IMG/VR virus record: IMGVR_UViG_2740892523_000006 | From: a virus | Taxonomy: Duplodnaviria > Heunggongvirae > Uroviricota > Caudoviricetes | DNA length: 55,003 nt | Direction: 5' to 3' (one strand) | In this document: one piece after another, positions 2,280 to 10,706 of the stretch | How the letters are laid out: the number at the start of each line of letters is the position of its first letter | How positions within the stretch are numbered: position 1 is the first letter of the stretch | Translations under genes and position numbers: made by a program | Notes under the pieces: generated by a model | Databases searched by the model: none | The model's input: the letters and a program-made list of their open reading frames with translations, nothing else | Told to the model about the DNA's origin: nothing

Positions 2280-3017
2280 TCATTCACTCTCTTTCAAACC
2301 AGTTTTAACTGTTTGTGGTTTTGGGTAAGGCTGGACTTTGAATAGCTTTGTGTTGAGGCGTTTTCTGGCCCTCTTGTTCAGAAACCGGATGTAACGAAAC
2401 TGTCGGAACTTATGAACACTGGCTCTGTCAATATTAGCCCTCAGATGTTCACCTCGTTGTCCGCCTCGTTTAATGGCATTCCTGCAAATCTCGTGATACC
2501 ACTCGCCATCAAGTTCATAGAATATTGATTCATGGCTGCCTACATAATCAAAATTGCTTGCCTGATACACGACACCAAGACAGCCACAACGCTCATCTGC
2601 AAACGACTGAACCCACTGTACCTGCGGATAAAGCTGCCTGATTAGCTTGAGCGCGTAACTGATTGCCCTTGATTCGGAGTTTCTCGGCATACAGTCATGC
2701 AGCCATAGCCGGTTAAGCTCCATATATTCTCGGTTCTGCGTACCCGTTACGACGCGTGCACCACTGTTTGGGTTAAGGGCGTAACCCCATTGCATTACGC
2801 CAACAAGTTCCCGTTCTGAAAATATGCCCAGATGAAGGTAGGAGTTATTTACGAAACGGTGGCTGTAATGTTTATTGACGATGACCAGTCTGGCCAGCCA
2901 GCAACTTATTGTCTCAACCCGCAACTCACGGGAGCCATAACCAACGATATTGTCGTTATAGCGAATAAGTTCAGGCGTGCTGATGATTCGGGATGTGACT
3001 TGCTTTCTGTTCCCCAC
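2280..3017 (-). CDS. mom: Mom-like DNA modification protein
   Basis: 245-aa ORF immediately downstream of and overlapping a Com-like zinc-finger gene, ~120 bp from prophage right end, as in Mu; sequence identity to Mom not verified. Confidence 0.6.
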
Positions 3018-3216
3018 GACAGGATTTCCTTGTGTATGTGGGGTGCTCTGTGGCGCTCGGAGATGTGATTTGATTGAGGGTTTTACAGCGCGGACATTTT
3101 ACTTCCAGATAACTGAAACTGGCCCGTGCCAGTAGCTTATTGCAGTGTCGGCACCGTATGTTTCGATACATGACCGCATAACCTCCTGCTTTGTTGTTGA
3201 TGCCTTTCTCATGCAA
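2971..3216 (-). CDS. com: Com-like zinc-finger translational regulator of mom
   Basis: [10 protein letters not shown]...EVKCPRCKT...EHPT matches recalled Mu Com CxxC...CxxC pattern; TTG start at 3216 or ATG at 3171; overlaps mom start. Confidence 0.7.
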
Positions 3217-3788: not shown

Positions 3789-4034
3789 TTACATCATAGT
3801 ACCGTCAGTTCCGGGCTGAACCGGCTCTGGTTGCTCTACGGGTTGAGGATCATTTTCCGTGCTGTTTTCAGCCGGAGAACGGCCAACCATTCGGGCCAGC
3901 ACTTCATCAACATATGCGTCGATTTGTGCCTCAAAATCCTTGCGAACCTGCGCCTTCAGCACGCGGTTCACTTCTTCAGAATAAAGTGCCTGTTTGACAA
4001 GCTCTTCAGTAACCGTGCCTTTAATCTCTGGCAT
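3789..4034 (-). CDS. Hypothetical protein (81 aa), downstream of esterase gene
   Basis: ORF in same orientation as esterase; acidic Pro-rich C-terminus; no family recognised. Confidence 0.4.
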   Translation of the reverse strand: MPEIKGTVTEELVKQALYSEEVNRVLKAQVRKDFEAQIDAYVDEVLARMVGRSPAENSTENDPQPVEQPEPVQPGTDGTMM

Positions 4035-4069: not shown

Positions 4070-4252
4070 TCAGAGCGGGGTCGGGTCGTTTGGGGATGAC
4101 GGTGCCTGTGCTGTTTTACTGAGTTTTTCAGCTGCCGCATCATCAATTTTACGGCGAATATAATTTCTGATGACCTTATAACCACCGCTCACCAGATATA
4201 ACGCACTGACCACAGCGCAGAAATAAAGCAGCATTGTATGAACGAATGTCAT
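4070..4252 (-). CDS. Hypothetical small membrane protein (60 aa)
   Basis: N-terminal hydrophobic stretch LLYFCAVVSALYLVSGG then charged tail; same strand as esterase. Confidence 0.4.
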   Translation of the reverse strand: MTFVHTMLLYFCAVVSALYLVSGGYKVIRNYIRRKIDDAAAEKLSKTAQAPSSPNDPTPL

Positions 4253-4364: not shown

Positions 4365-4400
4365 TCCCGCCAGCCATATCATGACCGGCGGGATTTTTTT
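4365..4400 (+). terminator. Candidate intrinsic terminator facing plus strand, abutting esterase stop
   Basis: CCCGCC...GGCGGG stem followed by ATTTTTTTATT on plus strand (4366-4403). Confidence 0.35.
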
Positions 4401-6438
4401 ATTCTGTTACCGCTTTTTTCACTTCCACCACAATGCTGTCAATCAGCACCGGGTAAGTTGCATTTTTTGTGATATCCGTTACGCGGAGTTTGTCCACCGG
4501 GAAAGTTCCTACTGGTGACTGCGTCAGGGTAAACGCGGCACCATCCTGACCATCAATAACCGGAATAACCTGAAGGCTGTTATTTCCTGCAAAACGGAAG
4601 GCCAGCGTATGCCATTCATTATCAAATGCACCAAAGGTTCCCAGTTTCTGGTTATTTGTTGCCACTTTTGCATTGTGGTACATCACATTCAGGTCTTTTG
4701 CGTCTGTCTGGATGTAGAACGATGCCAGCAGATTATTCCCTGCATCCCCTGTCAGGGTGACACCCTGCGGCAGAGAGGAAACCGGCCAGTAAAGCCCCAT
4801 GACATACTGGTTTGCCACCAGGTCGCCAGGTACTTTAAAACGACAACTGATTAAACCACCATTTTTCAGCAGTTCAGCACCAGTACCGGCATCATGATCC
4901 AGATACCAAGATGATTTACCTGTTTCCTTGGTCAGTTTCATTGCCTTACCACCTGTGCCTCCTGCATCACTGATAATTTCAGCTTTACCGCCAGCCGGCT
5001 CCCAGCCCTGGGCTTTCAGATTTCCTTCTGACTCACTGACACGATAAGACAGCAGTGTTGTGGTTACTGCTTCAGTTTCTGAAGGTGACGGCACTGGTGC
5101 TTCAGTTTCAGAAGATGGAACATCGGCTTTTACTGTGGTTCGCCCCGCATGAGTCAGAACTGCCGTGGCCAGACGGTCGGAAATAATCCCACGACGTGCC
5201 CATGAACTGAAATGGCTGGCCCGGTCCGCAGATGTCCAGGTGGCGGCACTGTTACGCCACGTTGAGCCGTAATAACCAATGGATTCAATATCCGGGTCTT
5301 CTGCCGGATTGTTGGTGGGTACATTCGCGTCATTTTCATCTGTCATTAATGGAACGAAATGAATGTTTTTATCTGTTTTGTTTTTGTAGCCGCCATAGAT
5401 TGCCTGGTATGCCGGTTCATTTTTCTGTTTCCAGAAATACGTGGTATCGCCACAAATCCACGGAACGCCAGCAGCACTGCCACCGGTACACTGTTCCGCC
5501 TGTTCAGCCAGGTCTGCGCGGAATTTTTCCACCATCGCCAGAAACAGCGCGGAATGCTCCGTCGGCTTCGCATCAATATCAAACTCGCCCTGCATCCACA
5601 CCACAGCAAGCAGGCGGTTTTTCGGGTTCTTCGCCAGTGCCGCTTTTGTCCGGCTGATTAAGTCCTTATACAGCGGCTTATCCACACCCCAGCGGGCTGA
5701 GTCCTCTGAAGCACCCGTGCTGTCACTGTACGTGCCGTCAGCACCCGCCGTGAATGCAGAACCACCACGGCAGCAGGGAACCAGCAGAATCCCCGCATCT
5801 GCCGGAATAAACGGCAGCAGTTTTTTGGCAATGTGAAGCCCCTGACCCACGGTGCCATATTGCCCTTTAGCCACATCCGCTTTCGGGTGATTTTTTCCAC
5901 TCATATCCTGCACATCATGCAGACAGTGGTCGGCCAGAATGATGTCGTTATACTGACAGGCTTTACCTCCCGGCGTGACTGTACTGCGACGGGCTAACTG
6001 CATAATACGCGGTTCGGGGCGGTCATATGTCTCCGGCAGTGGCAGACCTTCACCGTAAGCCATACCGTTTGACTGACCAGCAAGAACCACCACGTAATAC
6101 CAGGAAGGGGAGCTGGAAGCAGTTTCATTTCCTGACGGACGGGTATGTGTTTCAGCATTATCCCAGTCTGACGGTTCAGCAGTACCGGCAACATCAGCAC
6201 TTAACGGAATGACCGCACCAATACCCGCTCCGGTAATTTCCACACTCGGATCACCGGATACTGGCCTTACCCACAGGCAATCCCGTGTATTAAAACTGAT
6301 GAGACAGTCAGCAAATGTCATTCCTCCTTTTGTTTCGGCCGGAGGAAAGGGAGCCTCAAGAAATGCCGCTGTACCACCGGAAACTTTAACAGTAAAGTTT
6401 CCGGGCATTGATGATAGTTGAACCCATTTGGACGTCAT
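4399..6438 (-). CDS. SASA/SGNH-family carbohydrate O-acetylesterase with C-terminal lectin-like domain (NanS-p-like cargo gene)
   Basis: 679 aa; VVVLAGQSNGMAYGEG matches the GQSN esterase motif; SETEAPVPSPSETEAV linker; beta-rich C-terminal ~230 aa; no signal peptide. Confidence 0.65.
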   Translation of the reverse strand: MTSKWVQLSSMPGNFTVKVSGGTAAFLEAPFPPAETKGGMTFADCLISFNTRDCLWVRPVSGDPSVEITGAGIGAVIPLSADVAGTAEPSDWDNAETHTRPSGNETASSSPSWYYVVVLAGQSNGMAYGEGLPLPETYDRPEPRIMQLARRSTVTPGGKACQYNDIILADHCLHDVQDMSGKNHPKADVAKGQYGTVGQGLHIAKKLLPFIPADAGILLVPCCRGGSAFTAGADGTYSDSTGASEDSARWGVDKPLYKDLISRTKAALAKNPKNRLLAVVWMQGEFDIDAKPTEHSALFLAMVEKFRADLAEQAEQCTGGSAAGVPWICGDTTYFWKQKNEPAYQAIYGGYKNKTDKNIHFVPLMTDENDANVPTNNPAEDPDIESIGYYGSTWRNSAATWTSADRASHFSSWARRGIISDRLATAVLTHAGRTTVKADVPSSETEAPVPSPSETEAVTTTLLSYRVSESEGNLKAQGWEPAGGKAEIISDAGGTGGKAMKLTKETGKSSWYLDHDAGTGAELLKNGGLISCRFKVPGDLVANQYVMGLYWPVSSLPQGVTLTGDAGNNLLASFYIQTDAKDLNVMYHNAKVATNNQKLGTFGAFDNEWHTLAFRFAGNNSLQVIPVIDGQDGAAFTLTQSPVGTFPVDKLRVTDITKNATYPVLIDSIVVEVKKAVTE

Positions 6439-6537: not shown

Positions 6538-7098
6538 TTATTTTTCCGAAACGCTCGCAGGATAATAACGATAAAGGGTTGAAAGGCCGATATCAAAAAT
6601 AAGTGCCACCTGTCTTCGACTGACACCCCCGGCCAGTAAACGCCCGACCTGCTCGTATTGTTCCTGCGTGAGACGACGGGGTCTGCCGCCGGTTCGTCCC
6701 CTTTCACGGGCAGCTGCAAGACCAGCCCGTGTCCGTTCGACAATTAATTCACGCTCCATTTCTGCCAGCGCACCCATTATGTGAAAAAAGAAGCGCCCCA
6801 TGGGGGTTGACGTATCAATGTTGTCAGTAAGACTACGAAAATTTATCCCCTGTTGCTGTAATTCATCTGTCAGCGCAACAAGGTGGCGCATACTGCGCCC
6901 CAGCCTGTCCAGTTTCCAGACCATCAGTGTGTCACCGGGTTTTAGTTTCTTCAGTGCCCGCTTCAGTCCCGGCCGCTGTGTCGTTTTACCACTCATTTTA
7001 TCTTCAAAAATCTGCTCACATCCTGCACATTCCAGCGCATTTCTTTGTAAACCTGTGTTCTGGTCATTTGTTGATACGCGTATATAGCCAATCAGCAT
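6538..7098 (-). CDS. gin: Gin/Pin-family serine DNA invertase
   Basis: 186 aa, MLIGYIRVSTNDQNTGLQ...GINFRSLTDNIDTST...C-terminal HTH; resolvase/invertase N-terminal serine signature; adjacent to invertible segment. Confidence 0.9.
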   Translation of the reverse strand: MLIGYIRVSTNDQNTGLQRNALECAGCEQIFEDKMSGKTTQRPGLKRALKKLKPGDTLMVWKLDRLGRSMRHLVALTDELQQQGINFRSLTDNIDTSTPMGRFFFHIMGALAEMERELIVERTRAGLAAARERGRTGGRPRRLTQEQYEQVGRLLAGGVSRRQVALIFDIGLSTLYRYYPASVSEK

Positions 7099-7154
7099 GT
7101 ATTTACCTTCCTTAAAAAGAGGTGGAAAGGCCTTTTAAAGCAGATATACGGCAT

Positions 7155-7185
7155 CCCTGAAACCTCGGTTTACGGGATACTGTAA
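7155..7185. repeat. gix-like inversion crossover site (gin-proximal)
   Basis: AACCTCGGTTTACGGGATAC at 7161-7180 is an inverted copy (18/20) of 8526-8545 and resembles recalled Mu gix core AAACCTCGGTTTAC. Confidence 0.7.
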
Positions 7186-7523
7186 ACAGGGCCGCGAATG
7201 CCCTGCCATCGAACGGAGCGGCTGTTGCAGCGAATAAACTCGCCACTCCAAGAAATATTAATGGTGTCCCATTTGACGGAACGCAGGATATAAATATTAC
7301 ATCGGGGATGACGCAGTCTGTGGCTGACTCACGTTATGTTCAAAGCATTCGAAGAGGTTCAAGGTCAACGATTGGAATGCAATATAATATTTTTGAGGTT
7401 CCTGACGGATGCGTACTTACAGGGCTTGATGTCGCTGGTGATGGTAATGCAACGGTAACCGCATATTATCGACCTGTTCAGTTTCTGATAGATGGTTCGT
7501 GGAAAACAGCTTCCAGCGCATAA
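7161..7523 (+). other. Silent alternative tail-fibre C-terminal cassette (Sv-prime), no own start codon
   Basis: Frame open from 7161; translation NLGLRDTVNRAANALPSNGAAVAANKLATPRNINGVPFDGT... parallels S residues 194-321; would be fused to S constant part after inversion. Confidence 0.65.
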
Positions 7524-7602
7524 AAGTGCAGTAGTTCAAAAAACAGATTATCTGAATAAATATATGATGATTTTGTCTTTTCAACAAAAACAAGGTGAAA
7601 TA

Positions 7603-8124
7603 ATGGAGCTTATTAACGTAAAACGATATTACCCGGAACACAAACCCTATGGTGAGGATGTTCAGTATTTCCAGAGTGAGGACGGAAGGGATTTTTATGA
7701 ATCTATCCCGCTTTTCACAAAGAAATACAAACTCTGTATTTCGCCTGTAACGGGTATTATCTGCTCTGTTGCTGAAGATGTCTCTGCTTTATATCCGGCA
7801 GGTTTTACTGTTGTTGAAGTGGACGAACTGCCGGAAGGTGTGAATATTGACGGTAACTGGCAGTTTTCTGATGGCCTGATATCAAAGGTGCCGGTAAACT
7901 GGAAGACGGTTGCTGAAAAGCGCCGCTCATCGCTGCTCCAGGAAGCCAACGAAACTGTGGATGACTGGAAAACGGAATTAAAACTGGACATGATTAGCGA
8001 TGAAAATAAATTACAGCTGACGCGCTGGATGGCGTATATCCGACAGCTTAAAGAAATGCACTTTAATGATATTGCCAGTGAGGGGCATTACCAGGCGATT
8101 CCCTGGCCGGAAAAACCGGAATAA
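7603..8124 (+). CDS. Tail fibre assembly protein (U-prime-like), inside invertible segment
   Basis: Starts MELINVKRYYPEHKP after AAGGTG; C-terminus QLTRWMAYIRQL...AIPWPEKPE typical of tail fibre assembly chaperones. Confidence 0.7.
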   Translation: MELINVKRYYPEHKPYGEDVQYFQSEDGRDFYESIPLFTKKYKLCISPVTGIICSVAEDVSALYPAGFTVVEVDELPEGVNIDGNWQFSDGLISKVPVNWKTVAEKRRSSLLQEANETVDDWKTELKLDMISDENKLQLTRWMAYIRQLKEMHFNDIASEGHYQAIPWPEKPE

Positions 8125-8158
8125 TTCAGAGGGTGCATTCAGCACCCTTTTCTGTGGT

Positions 8159-9070
8159 TTACACTGAACTTACCGTTCTCCAGGCATTATTAATATAAAT
8201 CTGAACCGGGCGATAATAGACCCCACCGATATTGTCCGCAGACCGGGAGCCGGTTTCCTGCACGTTAATTCCGGAAAGCATACAACCGGAAGGTGCGCTG
8301 TAATTCCATGACATTTCATTGCCTCCGGGTGAATGATAGCTCTGTGCTCCAAGCTGAACATTCTGTACATACCGGCCATCTGCGGTTGACTGCGTCATTC
8401 CTGACGTGATGTTGATATCCAGCGTTCCGTCAAAAGGAACACCATTAATATTTCTTGGGGTGGCGAGTCTGTTTGCTGCCACGGCGGTTCCACCCGATGG
8501 CAGGGCATCAGCAGCCTTATTTACCGTTTCCCGTAAACCGACGTTATCGATAAAAGCGCCTTTATCCGGAATGTCTGCGCCGTTCTGCTCCCTGCGCAGG
8601 TAACGGTTATCACCTTCGCTTTTGCTGTAAACATCCAGATTATTACGGGCGGTTCCCGCATTCTCCAGGTCGGCAAGGTTCTGATCCTTCGCCAGAGCAT
8701 TAACGTCACCGGGACCAAGACTGTTTTTTGTGGCAAGCGCCCCAAGACCAAGATAACCACGGGCAAGACGCTGGGCTTCCGCACCGGCATCAGCAATTTC
8801 TTTCAGGTTGTTTTTCCGGGAAAAGGCATTCGCAGCGATAATGGCTTTAATGGACAGCGTAAGCTGGTTTAACTGCGCCTTATCCGGCTGAATACTGGCT
8901 TCAGCCAGAATATTCAGCAGTTCGGCCTGGAGAATATTCAGCCAGTCCTGACCAATCCAGCTGATACCTTTTTGTCCGTCACCTTCGGTAAACCAGGTGG
9001 TGGTATTACTCTGCGCCGGTGCCAGCGCAGGCATATTCGCCACGCCGGAATTATTATCAACATGGAACAT
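8159..9070 (-). CDS. Tail fibre protein (Mu S-like; constant N-part plus invertible C-terminal part Sv)
   Basis: ATG at 9070 overlaps upstream stop (TAATG); C-terminal 127 aa lie within invertible segment and are homologous to Sv-prime cassette. Confidence 0.75.
   Translation of the reverse strand: MFHVDNNSGVANMPALAPAQSNTTTWFTEGDGQKGISWIGQDWLNILQAELLNILAEASIQPDKAQLNQLTLSIKAIIAANAFSRKNNLKEIADAGAEAQRLARGYLGLGALATKNSLGPGDVNALAKDQNLADLENAGTARNNLDVYSKSEGDNRYLRREQNGADIPDKGAFIDNVGLRETVNKAADALPSGGTAVAANRLATPRNINGVPFDGTLDINITSGMTQSTADGRYVQNVQLGAQSYHSPGGNEMSWNYSAPSGCMLSGINVQETGSRSADNIGGVYYRPVQIYINNAWRTVSSV
8522..8550. repeat. gix-like inversion crossover site inside tail fibre gene
   Basis: GTTTCCCGTAAACCGACGTT at 8526-8545, inverted repeat of 7161-7180; coincides with codons ~193-200 (DNVGLRET) where the two cassettes begin to align. 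Confidence 0.7.
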
Positions 9071-9630
9071 TAAATATTCTCCTCTTCGTGACTGTTTGCA
9101 TACACGTAAATAAACGTCTGCCATGCAGGCTTATAACGGTTCAGAATACATTCCAGCGCACCGCCTTCATAAATACGCAGCGGCGTGAGAATATCATCCA
9201 GCACATTCATATTCCGGTAGCCGGTTTCACTGTTAATCGTGACAATACTGACCCACTGTGAATCCGGTGATGGCTGAATATCTATTTCATAACCAAACTC
9301 TGCCGCAAACCGGATATAAAATTCACGGTTAAGAGAGGGTTTCATCCGGTATTTATTCCCGGCATAACGCTGACGCTCCTGAATGGTTGCGCCGGTCATA
9401 TCACATTCCGGTAACCCCAGATAACGCTCCCAGTCTTCCAGCAGCAGACGGGATGAATCAGGAAAACGTTCTGCCAGCATCTGGTTACCGGTCCAGGAAA
9501 CACGCTCCGTGGAATGACTGAGGCCCAGGCACAAAGCCGCAAGAACGGATGACGGCCGCTTATCCCATGCCAGCCCGTCAGGCAGCAACTGCAACAGGGC
9601 GCGCTGATGCGGGGTCAGGGTTACAGCCAT
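9070..9630 (-). CDS. Tail/baseplate protein (Mu gp48 position)
   Basis: 186 aa between baseplate J-like gene and tail fibre; assigned by synteny. Confidence 0.55.
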   Translation of the reverse strand: MAVTLTPHQRALLQLLPDGLAWDKRPSSVLAALCLGLSHSTERVSWTGNQMLAERFPDSSRLLLEDWERYLGLPECDMTGATIQERQRYAGNKYRMKPSLNREFYIRFAAEFGYEIDIQPSPDSQWVSIVTINSETGYRNMNVLDDILTPLRIYEGGALECILNRYKPAWQTFIYVYANSHEEENI

Positions 9631-10706
9631 GTGATTTCCCCCACGGTCAGCAACTCTGTATCTCCGGCCATCACGGACTTCAGCGGGCTGCGAACTTCAA
9701 AATCCTCCAGTCCTTTCACCCCTGCAACAGCCCGCCAGAATGATGAAGGCAATACAAGTCCACCCGGCCGCGATTCGTTATAAAGCAGGTCTGTTAATGC
9801 CTGTTTTACGGCAGCCTGATTTTCCGGCGTTTTGGGTACAATCCTGATCTCAAACGCCACCGGCTTATTGGTCAGCTTAAACACGCTGATTGTCGGCCCA
9901 AGTGGCTGACCAACGGGCTGGCCCGTCGCCGGATCATCATGACTGCGGATATAATCCGCCACCCGCTTCACATCACCTTCTCCGGGGAAAATGTCAGGGT
10001 TATTATCCTGAACAAAAGTCACACCAACACTACCCGCCTCAGGCCATTCAGGCTTACACCATGCCCGCGTCACGCCCGGTACTTCCCGTGCCCAGCGTTC
10101 AAAATCATACTGTGTTCCCCCTGATGGCGGGTTCTGTACCCGGAATACCAGCCTGGACAGCAACTCCGGCACCGTTTCCACATCCGCACCACCGGTGAGT
10201 CCCGTGCCGGTGACCGTGGCTGTCTGGTTGATGCCCGCCTGTGGCGTGATAAAGGACAGGCGGGTTCCGGTCGGGGTATTTCCAGCGCGCCCCGCACTTT
10301 CCGCCTCCACATTAACATTCAGTGTTCCGGCTTTTCCGGTCGCAGAGCCGGTGATGCGGTACACAACACCATCGCTTCGCTGAAGGAGTACGCCTTCCGT
10401 GATCCCTGCATCCGTGGTCAGCATCAGTTGTACCGGTCCGTCAGCGCGGGAAGCCGGTTTACGGATGACACCCCAGAATGCGCAGTGTTTCAGGAGTTCG
10501 GCTTCATCAGCTTCTGTCGGAATTATCTGCCGGGAGATCCAGGCCAGATGTTCATGCTCCTGTGCTGACAGACCCGCCAGTGCATACGCAATGGCATTCA
10601 GGGTGGTTTCATTCACGCCCGGCTGCGAACCGGGCAGGCGCTGGCTGATATCCTGTTGTGTCTGTGTGATCAGTTGCGCCAGTGGTAAGGGCTGATAAGG
10701 CATCAT
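9621..10706 (-). CDS. Baseplate J-like protein (Mu gp47 position)
   Basis: 361 aa; position and size in baseplate module; family not verified. Confidence 0.6.
   Translation of the reverse strand: MMPYQPLPLAQLITQTQQDISQRLPGSQPGVNETTLNAIAYALAGLSAQEHEHLAWISRQIIPTEADEAELLKHCAFWGVIRKPASRADGPVQLMLTTDAGITEGVLLQRSDGVVYRITGSATGKAGTLNVNVEAESAGRAGNTPTGTRLSFITPQAGINQTATVTGTGLTGGADVETVPELLSRLVFRVQNPPSGGTQYDFERWAREVPGVTRAWCKPEWPEAGSVGVTFVQDNNPDIFPGEGDVKRVADYIRSHDDPATGQPVGQPLGPTISVFKLTNKPVAFEIRIVPKTPENQAAVKQALTDLLYNESRPGGLVLPSSFWRAVAGVKGLEDFEVRSPLKSVMAGDTELLTVGEITWL

Follow-up and report, generated by a model that had tools for sequence, protein, structure and literature searches.

In the accepted picture of Gin-type fiber switches, a textbook case of programmed host-range variation, each alternative fiber tip comes with its own assembly chaperone, and the invertible segment lacks a promoter of its own. 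The locus analyzed here, at positions 7155-9070 of a 55,003-nucleotide stretch of viral DNA (Caudoviricetes; IMG/VR record IMGVR_UViG_2740892523_000006; hereafter the window, meaning the whole stretch), raises the question of how such a switch could work with a single chaperone gene: its invertible segment carries two C-terminal tail-fiber cassettes, Sv and Sv', and only one tail fiber assembly gene, tfa, which follows the silent cassette. By its close identity to sequenced prophages, the window is identified as an Sp18-type Mu-like prophage of Shiga toxin-producing Escherichia coli (STEC). On balance, we lean toward an A/B switch of fiber tips, driven by the invertase Gin, in which one shared Tfa is made independently of the orientation of the segment.

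Anatomy and natural inversion of the segment

The gin gene (6538-7098, minus strand) encodes a full-length serine DNA invertase of 186 aa that carries Pfam Resolvase (E = 1.4e-51) and HTH_7 (E = 1.7e-14) domains, matches the PHROG DNA invertase family (E = 6e-95) and the Mu Gin structure 3UJ3 (E = 2.3e-91 over residues 1-182), and contains the catalytic-serine motif YIRVSTNDQ. With its N-terminal catalytic domain and C-terminal helix-turn-helix, it is a small serine recombinase of the Din invertase group, ~75% identical to Mu Gin (tblastn); at the nucleotide level, the identity to Mu gin is 69% overall, and the first 240 nt align well. The gin-side gix site (7160-7180, plus strand) shows one mismatch to a 21-bp pattern, AAACCTCGGTTTACGGGAAAC, and has its crossover dinucleotide TC at 7165-7166, while the second site, inside the fiber gene S (8526-8546, minus strand), shows two mismatches and has its TC at 8540-8541. 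Within the 55-kb window, the pattern matched at these two sites only, and shuffled sequences gave an expectation of 0 matches. As in Din systems, where the sites span ~26 bp, the two crossover sites are inverted and share an identical central dinucleotide; both align with Mu gixL and gixR with the central TC retained, and the 18/20 identity given in the original prediction was correct. The position of the site within S also matches that in Mu, at the motif NLGL(Q/R)ETVN. Because both cassettes start with the same coding sequence, the inverted repeat comprises arms of 182 nt that are 79% identical (7161-7342 and 8364-8545). The invertible segment between the gix sites measures ~1.38 kb.

The S gene (8159-9070, minus strand) encodes a 303-aa tail fiber and crosses the 8526-8546 site, as had been proposed from the sequence. 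Its constant N-terminal part, Sc (8546-9070, minus strand; 175 codons), lies outside the segment and is homologous to Mu S residues 1-191 (PDB 5YVQ_A, E = 4e-49), with an ATG that overlaps the gp48 stop codon. In the window, Sc is fused to the currently expressed cassette Sv (8159-8545, minus strand; 128 codons plus stop), the tip of which is homologous to Mu S residues 435-503. The translations likewise bore out a homologous, start-less cassette at the other site: the currently silent Sv' (7161-7523, plus strand; 120 codons plus stop), assigned to PHROG tail fiber families, has its frame running from 7161, straight after a TGA at 7158-7160, and Sv' and tfa read inward from the gin-side site. 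The constant N-terminus is thus fused in frame to either C-terminus, yielding a fiber of 303 aa with Sv or 295 aa with Sv'. Sv and Sv' have a common fold, the one seen in the Mu S / P2 H tip, but with an identity of only 29-39% in their receptor-binding part they probably recognize different receptors.

Upon searching the window form and an in silico inverted form of the segment against 5,426 complete E. coli genomes, we found the segment in both orientations, with exact hybrid junctions. The window orientation was present in 182 genomes and the inverted form, at a coverage of at least 80%, in 26, the latter in several cases at 100.0% identity in one piece, and strain 07_3636 held two copies, one per orientation. 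As the in silico inversion matches complete genomes at 100%, inversion occurs in nature. In L001, a natural inverted copy, we observed the predicted hybrid site, with the two arm mismatches that bracket the exchange point around the central TC reassorted as expected for exchange at this dinucleotide; the 295-aa Sc-Sv' fiber is annotated there (L001 CDS 4784-5671), with tfa 79 nt downstream. The predicted inversion is hence supported, gin is full length, and the switch is real, active, and conserved. The orientations were skewed ~7:1 toward Sc-Sv, although ~1:1 would be expected from a symmetric Gin switch that had reached equilibrium; this skew could reflect clonality, infection founder effects, assembly bias, or selection.

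The segment contains exactly one Caudo_TAP gene, in line with the single assembly gene noted earlier, although with its start corrected to 7603. This gene, tfa (7603-8124, plus strand), encodes a 173-aa tail fiber assembly protein homologous to Mu U, which belongs to the Caudo_TAP family (PF02413; E = 1.9e-18, 67.3 bits vs a cut-off of 22.1) and matches PHROG_136 (E = 1e-57) and PDB 5YVQ_B (Mu U; E = 2.3e-15); the structure of Mu U was solved in complex with the S tip (5YVQ). The Mu G-type arrangement of an assembly gene after each C-terminus was found neither here nor in six relatives, and the contrast originally drawn between the one tfa and the U plus U' of the four-gene Mu G segment holds. 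No chaperone gene had been missed between 8124 and 8159, as a hairpin (8128-8150) is all that the 34 bp between the stops of tfa and Sv contain. In a terminator scan, this hairpin between the convergent stops resembled an intrinsic terminator in the tfa sense; its folding energy is -16.5 kcal/mol on the plus strand and -14.7 kcal/mol on the minus strand (z about -3.2 and -3.4), and its stem, AAAGGGTGC...GCACCCTTT, is kept in all relatives. Open reading frames (ORFs) antisense to tfa (44, 98, 41, and 74 aa) were considered as a hidden chaperone downstream of Sv and were rejected, since they are unconserved in relatives with other tfa types. Between Sv' and tfa lies an AT-rich spacer of 79 bp (7524-7602, plus strand) with its own Shine-Dalgarno sequence, AAGGTGA, and a weak -10-like TATGAT at 7563; in all relatives this spacer is 51-121 bp long and AT-rich, with a Shine-Dalgarno sequence.

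Fit of the chaperone to the two fiber tips

The layout of cassette, single tfa, cassette, and gin recurred in six out of six relatives (84-100% nucleotide identity), and the one-chaperone layout does not appear to be an accident or a recent deletion. Sv, which ends YYRPVQIYINNAWRTVSSV, was an intact 128-codon ORF in all seven loci, even where silent and even at 72-79% nucleotide identity, and this exact frame was held across lineages with synonymous sites near saturation. Its ratio of nonsynonymous to synonymous substitutions (dN/dS) was ~0.1 (range 0.07-0.32), the same as for tfa (~0.1 between types), and amounted to 0.06-0.21 in the tip domain for informative pairs, indicating strong purifying selection. 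From this pattern of conservation, Sv is judged to be functional.

Sv-like tips were examined in three fixed contexts. In Rac-SA53, the tip shows 63.6% identity to Sv and 38% identity to Sv', and a tfa with 52.6% identity to that of the window starts 3 nt behind the fiber. L091-L094, Mu-like prophages without an invertase, encode a 331-aa S with a tip 58.5% identical to Sv (36% to Sv'), and a tfa 57% identical to the window tfa lies 15 nt after S. In a P2 variant, a tip 62% identical to Sv precedes a tfa at a 1-nt gap. Since Sv-like tips in fixed loci thus precede a Caudo_TAP gene, they normally travel with such a chaperone, and by these homologies the Sp18 Tfa would match Sv as well as Sv'. 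Gene adjacency in homologous loci also suggests that Tfa would fold or trimerize the fiber and bind its tip.

An alternative that we consider unlikely is that Sv folds unaided, or with Tfa provided in trans by other STEC prophages, such that the single tfa serves only Sv'. The gene is placed as the downstream partner of Sv' only, and many lambdoid prophages with tfa genes reside in STEC genomes (general knowledge; Asadulghani 2009). Furthermore, no fewer than three types (A, C, and D) exist of Sv' and likewise of tfa, and most relatives pair like with like (A/A, C/C, and D/D); L002 and L003, for example, have Sv' type C together with tfa type C. This co-variation is, however, broken in L006, where Sv' type C stands with tfa type A, and by this combination tfa would not be tied to one tip type. 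This alternative also fits poorly with the Caudo_TAP gene found within 2-15 nt behind Sv-like tips in all three fixed contexts examined, with the homology of the Sv tip to the Mu S tip, which was crystallized with U (5YVQ), and with the normal repression of other prophages during Sp18 growth.

Across the population, four tip types align over their full length and share the terminal motif (Y/F)R.(V/I/L)Q...W...S, whereas pairwise identity over the last ~70 residues is only 28-39%. A profile search of genome contigs with the cassette alignment mostly retrieved a widespread collar motif (INGVPFDG) in unrelated bacteria; only one hit, from Providencia, was a full-length tip relative, and its contig is short and was unmatched by Gin and Tfa queries. 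In L002 and L003, the first ~35 nt past the stop of the type C cassette encode a relic, …NGSWRTAGSA*, that is like the end of the type A cassette, which suggests that recombination can exchange a cassette and leave the 3' end of its predecessor in place; in L006, a breakpoint lies within the first codons of tfa. In the diverged loci L003 and L005, S is not annotated as one intact ORF but only as small fragments, so some prophage copies have a broken fiber gene with cassettes and tfa intact.

Proposed supply of the chaperone in either orientation

With the segment oriented as in the window, S and tfa converge, and the late transcript is therefore unable to provide Tfa. In an array study of strain Sakai over a ten-point growth curve with 70-mer oligonucleotide arrays (PMC2241611), the equivalents of tfa (ECs4990) and Sv' (ECs4991) rose by log2 2.13 and 2.12 upon entry into stationary phase with near-identical profiles, i.e., ~4.4-fold in an uninduced lysogen, within a cluster that contains RpoS-dependent stress genes. 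In the same time course, the S equivalent (ECs4989) changed little, ECs4986 fell, and ECs4993 was flat (PMC2241611). These profiles, together with the long spacer and its own Shine-Dalgarno sequence, hint at a promoter separate from the late operon. One possible location of this putative promoter is the 5' portion of the cassette, from which it could act whichever way the segment faces. Another is the gin-gix spacer (~62 bp; 7099-7159), which has no strong sigma-70 match; the gin promoter would have to be within or next to this spacer, and a promoter directed rightward into the segment may be located here as well. The conserved hairpin at 8128-8150 would then end the tfa transcript and part it from the converging S transcript.

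The original prediction that the expressed tip has no cognate chaperone downstream stood, in that none follows it in cis. The conclusion implied by it, that the current fiber has no such chaperone at all, was not supported, as the nearest Tfa homologues (52-57% identical) follow Sv-like tips. Given that Tfa homologues are found 3-15 nt after tips that are 58-64% identical to Sv and 36-38% identical to Sv', and given the separate transcription in Sakai, the chaperone is probably present and shared, yet not in cis.

In the host-range switch that we propose, Gin inverts the ~1.38 kb between the gix sites, one of which lies within S, and thereby joins the 175-residue constant N-terminus either to Sv, as in the window, or to Sv'. 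The single Mu-U-type chaperone would most likely fold both tips. In the Sv' orientation, tfa could be co-transcribed with S, while in the Sv orientation a separate transcript would run through the silent Sv' into tfa and end at the hairpin facing the S end; we infer that this independent Sv'-tfa transcript would supply Tfa in lytic growth. We hold only tentatively the fuller version, in which the segment has been pared to one chaperone gene with an orientation-independent transcription unit of its own, induced on entering stationary phase even within a lysogen; the one Tfa would then fold two different tips and, across the population, at least four. Why a lysogen would express a fiber chaperone is not obvious. 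As Tfa proteins of the Mu type reportedly remain on the fiber and bind cell surfaces, Tfa might have a role of its own in lysogens, e.g., in surface masking or exclusion.

Several points weigh against a shared and independently expressed chaperone. Scanning positions 6900-9200, and 7080-7610 with relaxed settings, we found no convincing sigma-70 promoter upstream of tfa or the cassette, the candidates, TATAAT at 7383 and TATGAT at 7563, being weak and each having a poor -35 element; moreover, the three tfa types have spacers unrelated in sequence. The array data describe an uninduced stationary-phase lysogen, not lytic growth, and the orientation assigned to Sakai is that of the published genome, not one read from the array culture. 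The tfa genes of L091 and L095 are both 57% identical to the window tfa though their tips differ; Tfa similarity therefore does not discriminate tip subtypes, and the homology argument speaks for compatibility, not specificity. The action of Tfa on Sv, and any need of Sv for a chaperone, are proposals from homology. Finally, the 182:26 orientation count is inflated by clonal relatedness and could be biased by reference-guided assemblies. As a separate observation, a by-eye reading upstream of com, lys, I, and P revealed no convincing shared Mu C-protein box that recurs upstream of tfa.

Two further alternatives bear on the same data. It is improbable, in our view, that the segment acts as an ON/OFF switch in which only the Sv' orientation gives infective fibers and Sv particles are fiber-defective, limiting spread from most lysogens. 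Such a switch would account for the missing chaperone gene downstream of Sv and for the Sv orientation of most genomes, as expected if this state is harmless to the lysogen; nevertheless, the strong purifying selection and the exact 128-codon frame of Sv would be unexpected for a non-functional ending, and tfa is transcribed independently of S on the Sakai arrays. It is likewise improbable that the locus is a decay product, i.e., a four-gene G-like segment in a defective prophage from which one tfa was deleted. Four genes are indeed the usual complement in Mu, P88, Fels-2, and KP12, and the region does rearrange (witness the relic of an older cassette in the spacer of type C relatives). Nevertheless, the three-part layout is kept, with all ORFs intact, in lineages of 84-100% identity and with three Sv'/tfa types, and Sp18 is active, being induced, packaged, particle-forming, and found at differing insertion sites. 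An old deletion may lie at the origin of the layout; its present state is maintained by selection. Overall, each of the three alternatives fits less well than a tip switch with one shared Tfa, on account of gene adjacency, the dN/dS values, or the conservation of the layout.

If a single, separately transcribed chaperone is indeed maintained, Mu-U-type chaperones would be shareable among tips that are ~30-40% identical, which would bear on the host-range engineering of phages and tailocins via tip swapping. Separate transcription of tfa, if true, would furthermore make such a segment readable from both ends. The element is present in major STEC lineages and moves between them, and the expressed tip may affect which strains acquire the prophage.

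Genomic setting and known fiber switches

Over 3.3 kb, the region matches prophages of many complete STEC genomes (O157:H7, O111:H8, O103:H2, and others) at 100% identity. In Sakai, the equivalents are ECs4989 to ECs4993, within the annotated prophage Sp18 and in the same orientation as in the window; the window copy sits at another chromosomal site than Sakai Sp18, as its flank is not sorM/sorA. Sp18-type prophages occupy differing insertion sites across strains (PMC7430833), and for Sp18 itself spontaneous induction, packaging of its DNA, and Mu-like particles were seen (PMC2669165). Matches to the region in the phage database were LC727881 and LC727895 only; both contain a Mu-like phage, 93.5% identical over the region, annotated inside Shiga toxin (Stx) 1a- and Stx2c-converting prophages.

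The late genes of the prophage lie on the minus strand, in the order gp47, gp48, S, invertible segment, gin, a gene for a 679-aa esterase-like protein, and com plus mom. The Mu-like late gene gp47 spans 9621-10706 (minus strand) and gp48 (Phage_Mu_Gp48) spans 9070-9630 (minus strand), directly upstream of S. The esterase-like gene (4399-6438, minus strand) encodes a sialate O-acetylesterase (SASA) domain and DUF6645, and com and mom (2280-3216, minus strand) lie beyond it. We take this SASA protein to be like the NanS-p-type cargo of Stx phages. Near the 679-aa gene are small ORFs at 3789-4034 and 4070-4252, and small adjoining genes in relatives are annotated DUF1378 and DUF826.

The element works like the Mu G/Gin system and shares its gene order, as gp47, gp48, S, invertible segment, gin, com, and mom follow one another in both, and Gin, the gix core and its position in S, Sc, the tip, and Tfa (vs U) are homologous part by part. 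The differences lie in size and content: the segment is 1.38 kb here vs 3.06 kb in Mu, and the fiber, which lacks the middle part, is 303 or 295 aa vs 504 aa. One tfa replaces the U and U' of Mu, at a cassette-to-tfa gap of 79 bp vs 2 nt within the S-U and U'-S' pairs of Mu, and the 679-aa esterase-like gene stands between gin and com, where Mu has nothing. Sakai Sp18 is alike in its 303-aa fiber, tfa on the opposite strand, cassette fragment, and invertase (ECs4989-ECs4992), all in the same orientation. For Sp18, Asadulghani et al. (2009) described the invertible region as present but "distinct from those of Mu" and scored the host specificity as atypical; in the searchable literature we found no discussion of the single chaperone of Sp18 or of one tfa for both orientations.

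The non-invertible Mu-like prophages L091-L097, from E. coli and Salmonella, and phage Rac-SA53 have short S-type fibers with Sv-like tips and Tfa proteins 52-57% identical to that of the window, whereas they have no invertase and no second cassette, and tfa directly follows the fiber in cis. Among these, L091-L095 are sister Mu-like prophages of E. coli and Salmonella; in L092-L095, the order is S, tfa, a second large fiber (657-840 aa), and a DUF4376 gene, with com and mom next in L092 and L095. This arrangement amounts to a two-fiber solution instead of a switch.

Four Gin-type segments were sampled for tfa number (Mu, P88, Fels-2, and Klebsiella KP12), and all four have two tfa genes. The P2-like phages Fels-2 (Fin), P88, and Klebsiella KP12, like P1 (Cin) and e14 (Pin), have four-gene invertible fiber segments in which a serine invertase, 65-77% identical to the window Gin, lies beside alternative fiber C-termini; unlike the window, Fels-2, P88, and KP12 each carry a convergent pair of tfa genes, so that every cassette has its own. 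The phages mEpX1 and Yersinia vB_YenM_201.16 were considered as single-chaperone precedents and rejected, as their fiber and accessory-protein families differ. The tailocin carotovoricin Er, with a different fiber family, reportedly (in work by Nguyen et al. 2001) has a compact inversion of a 790-bp segment that swaps only fiber C-termini and is said to contain no chaperone gene within that segment. Set against these systems, the locus is a minimal variant of a well-known switch in an already catalogued prophage, and its interest lies in the shared, independently expressed chaperone that we propose for it.

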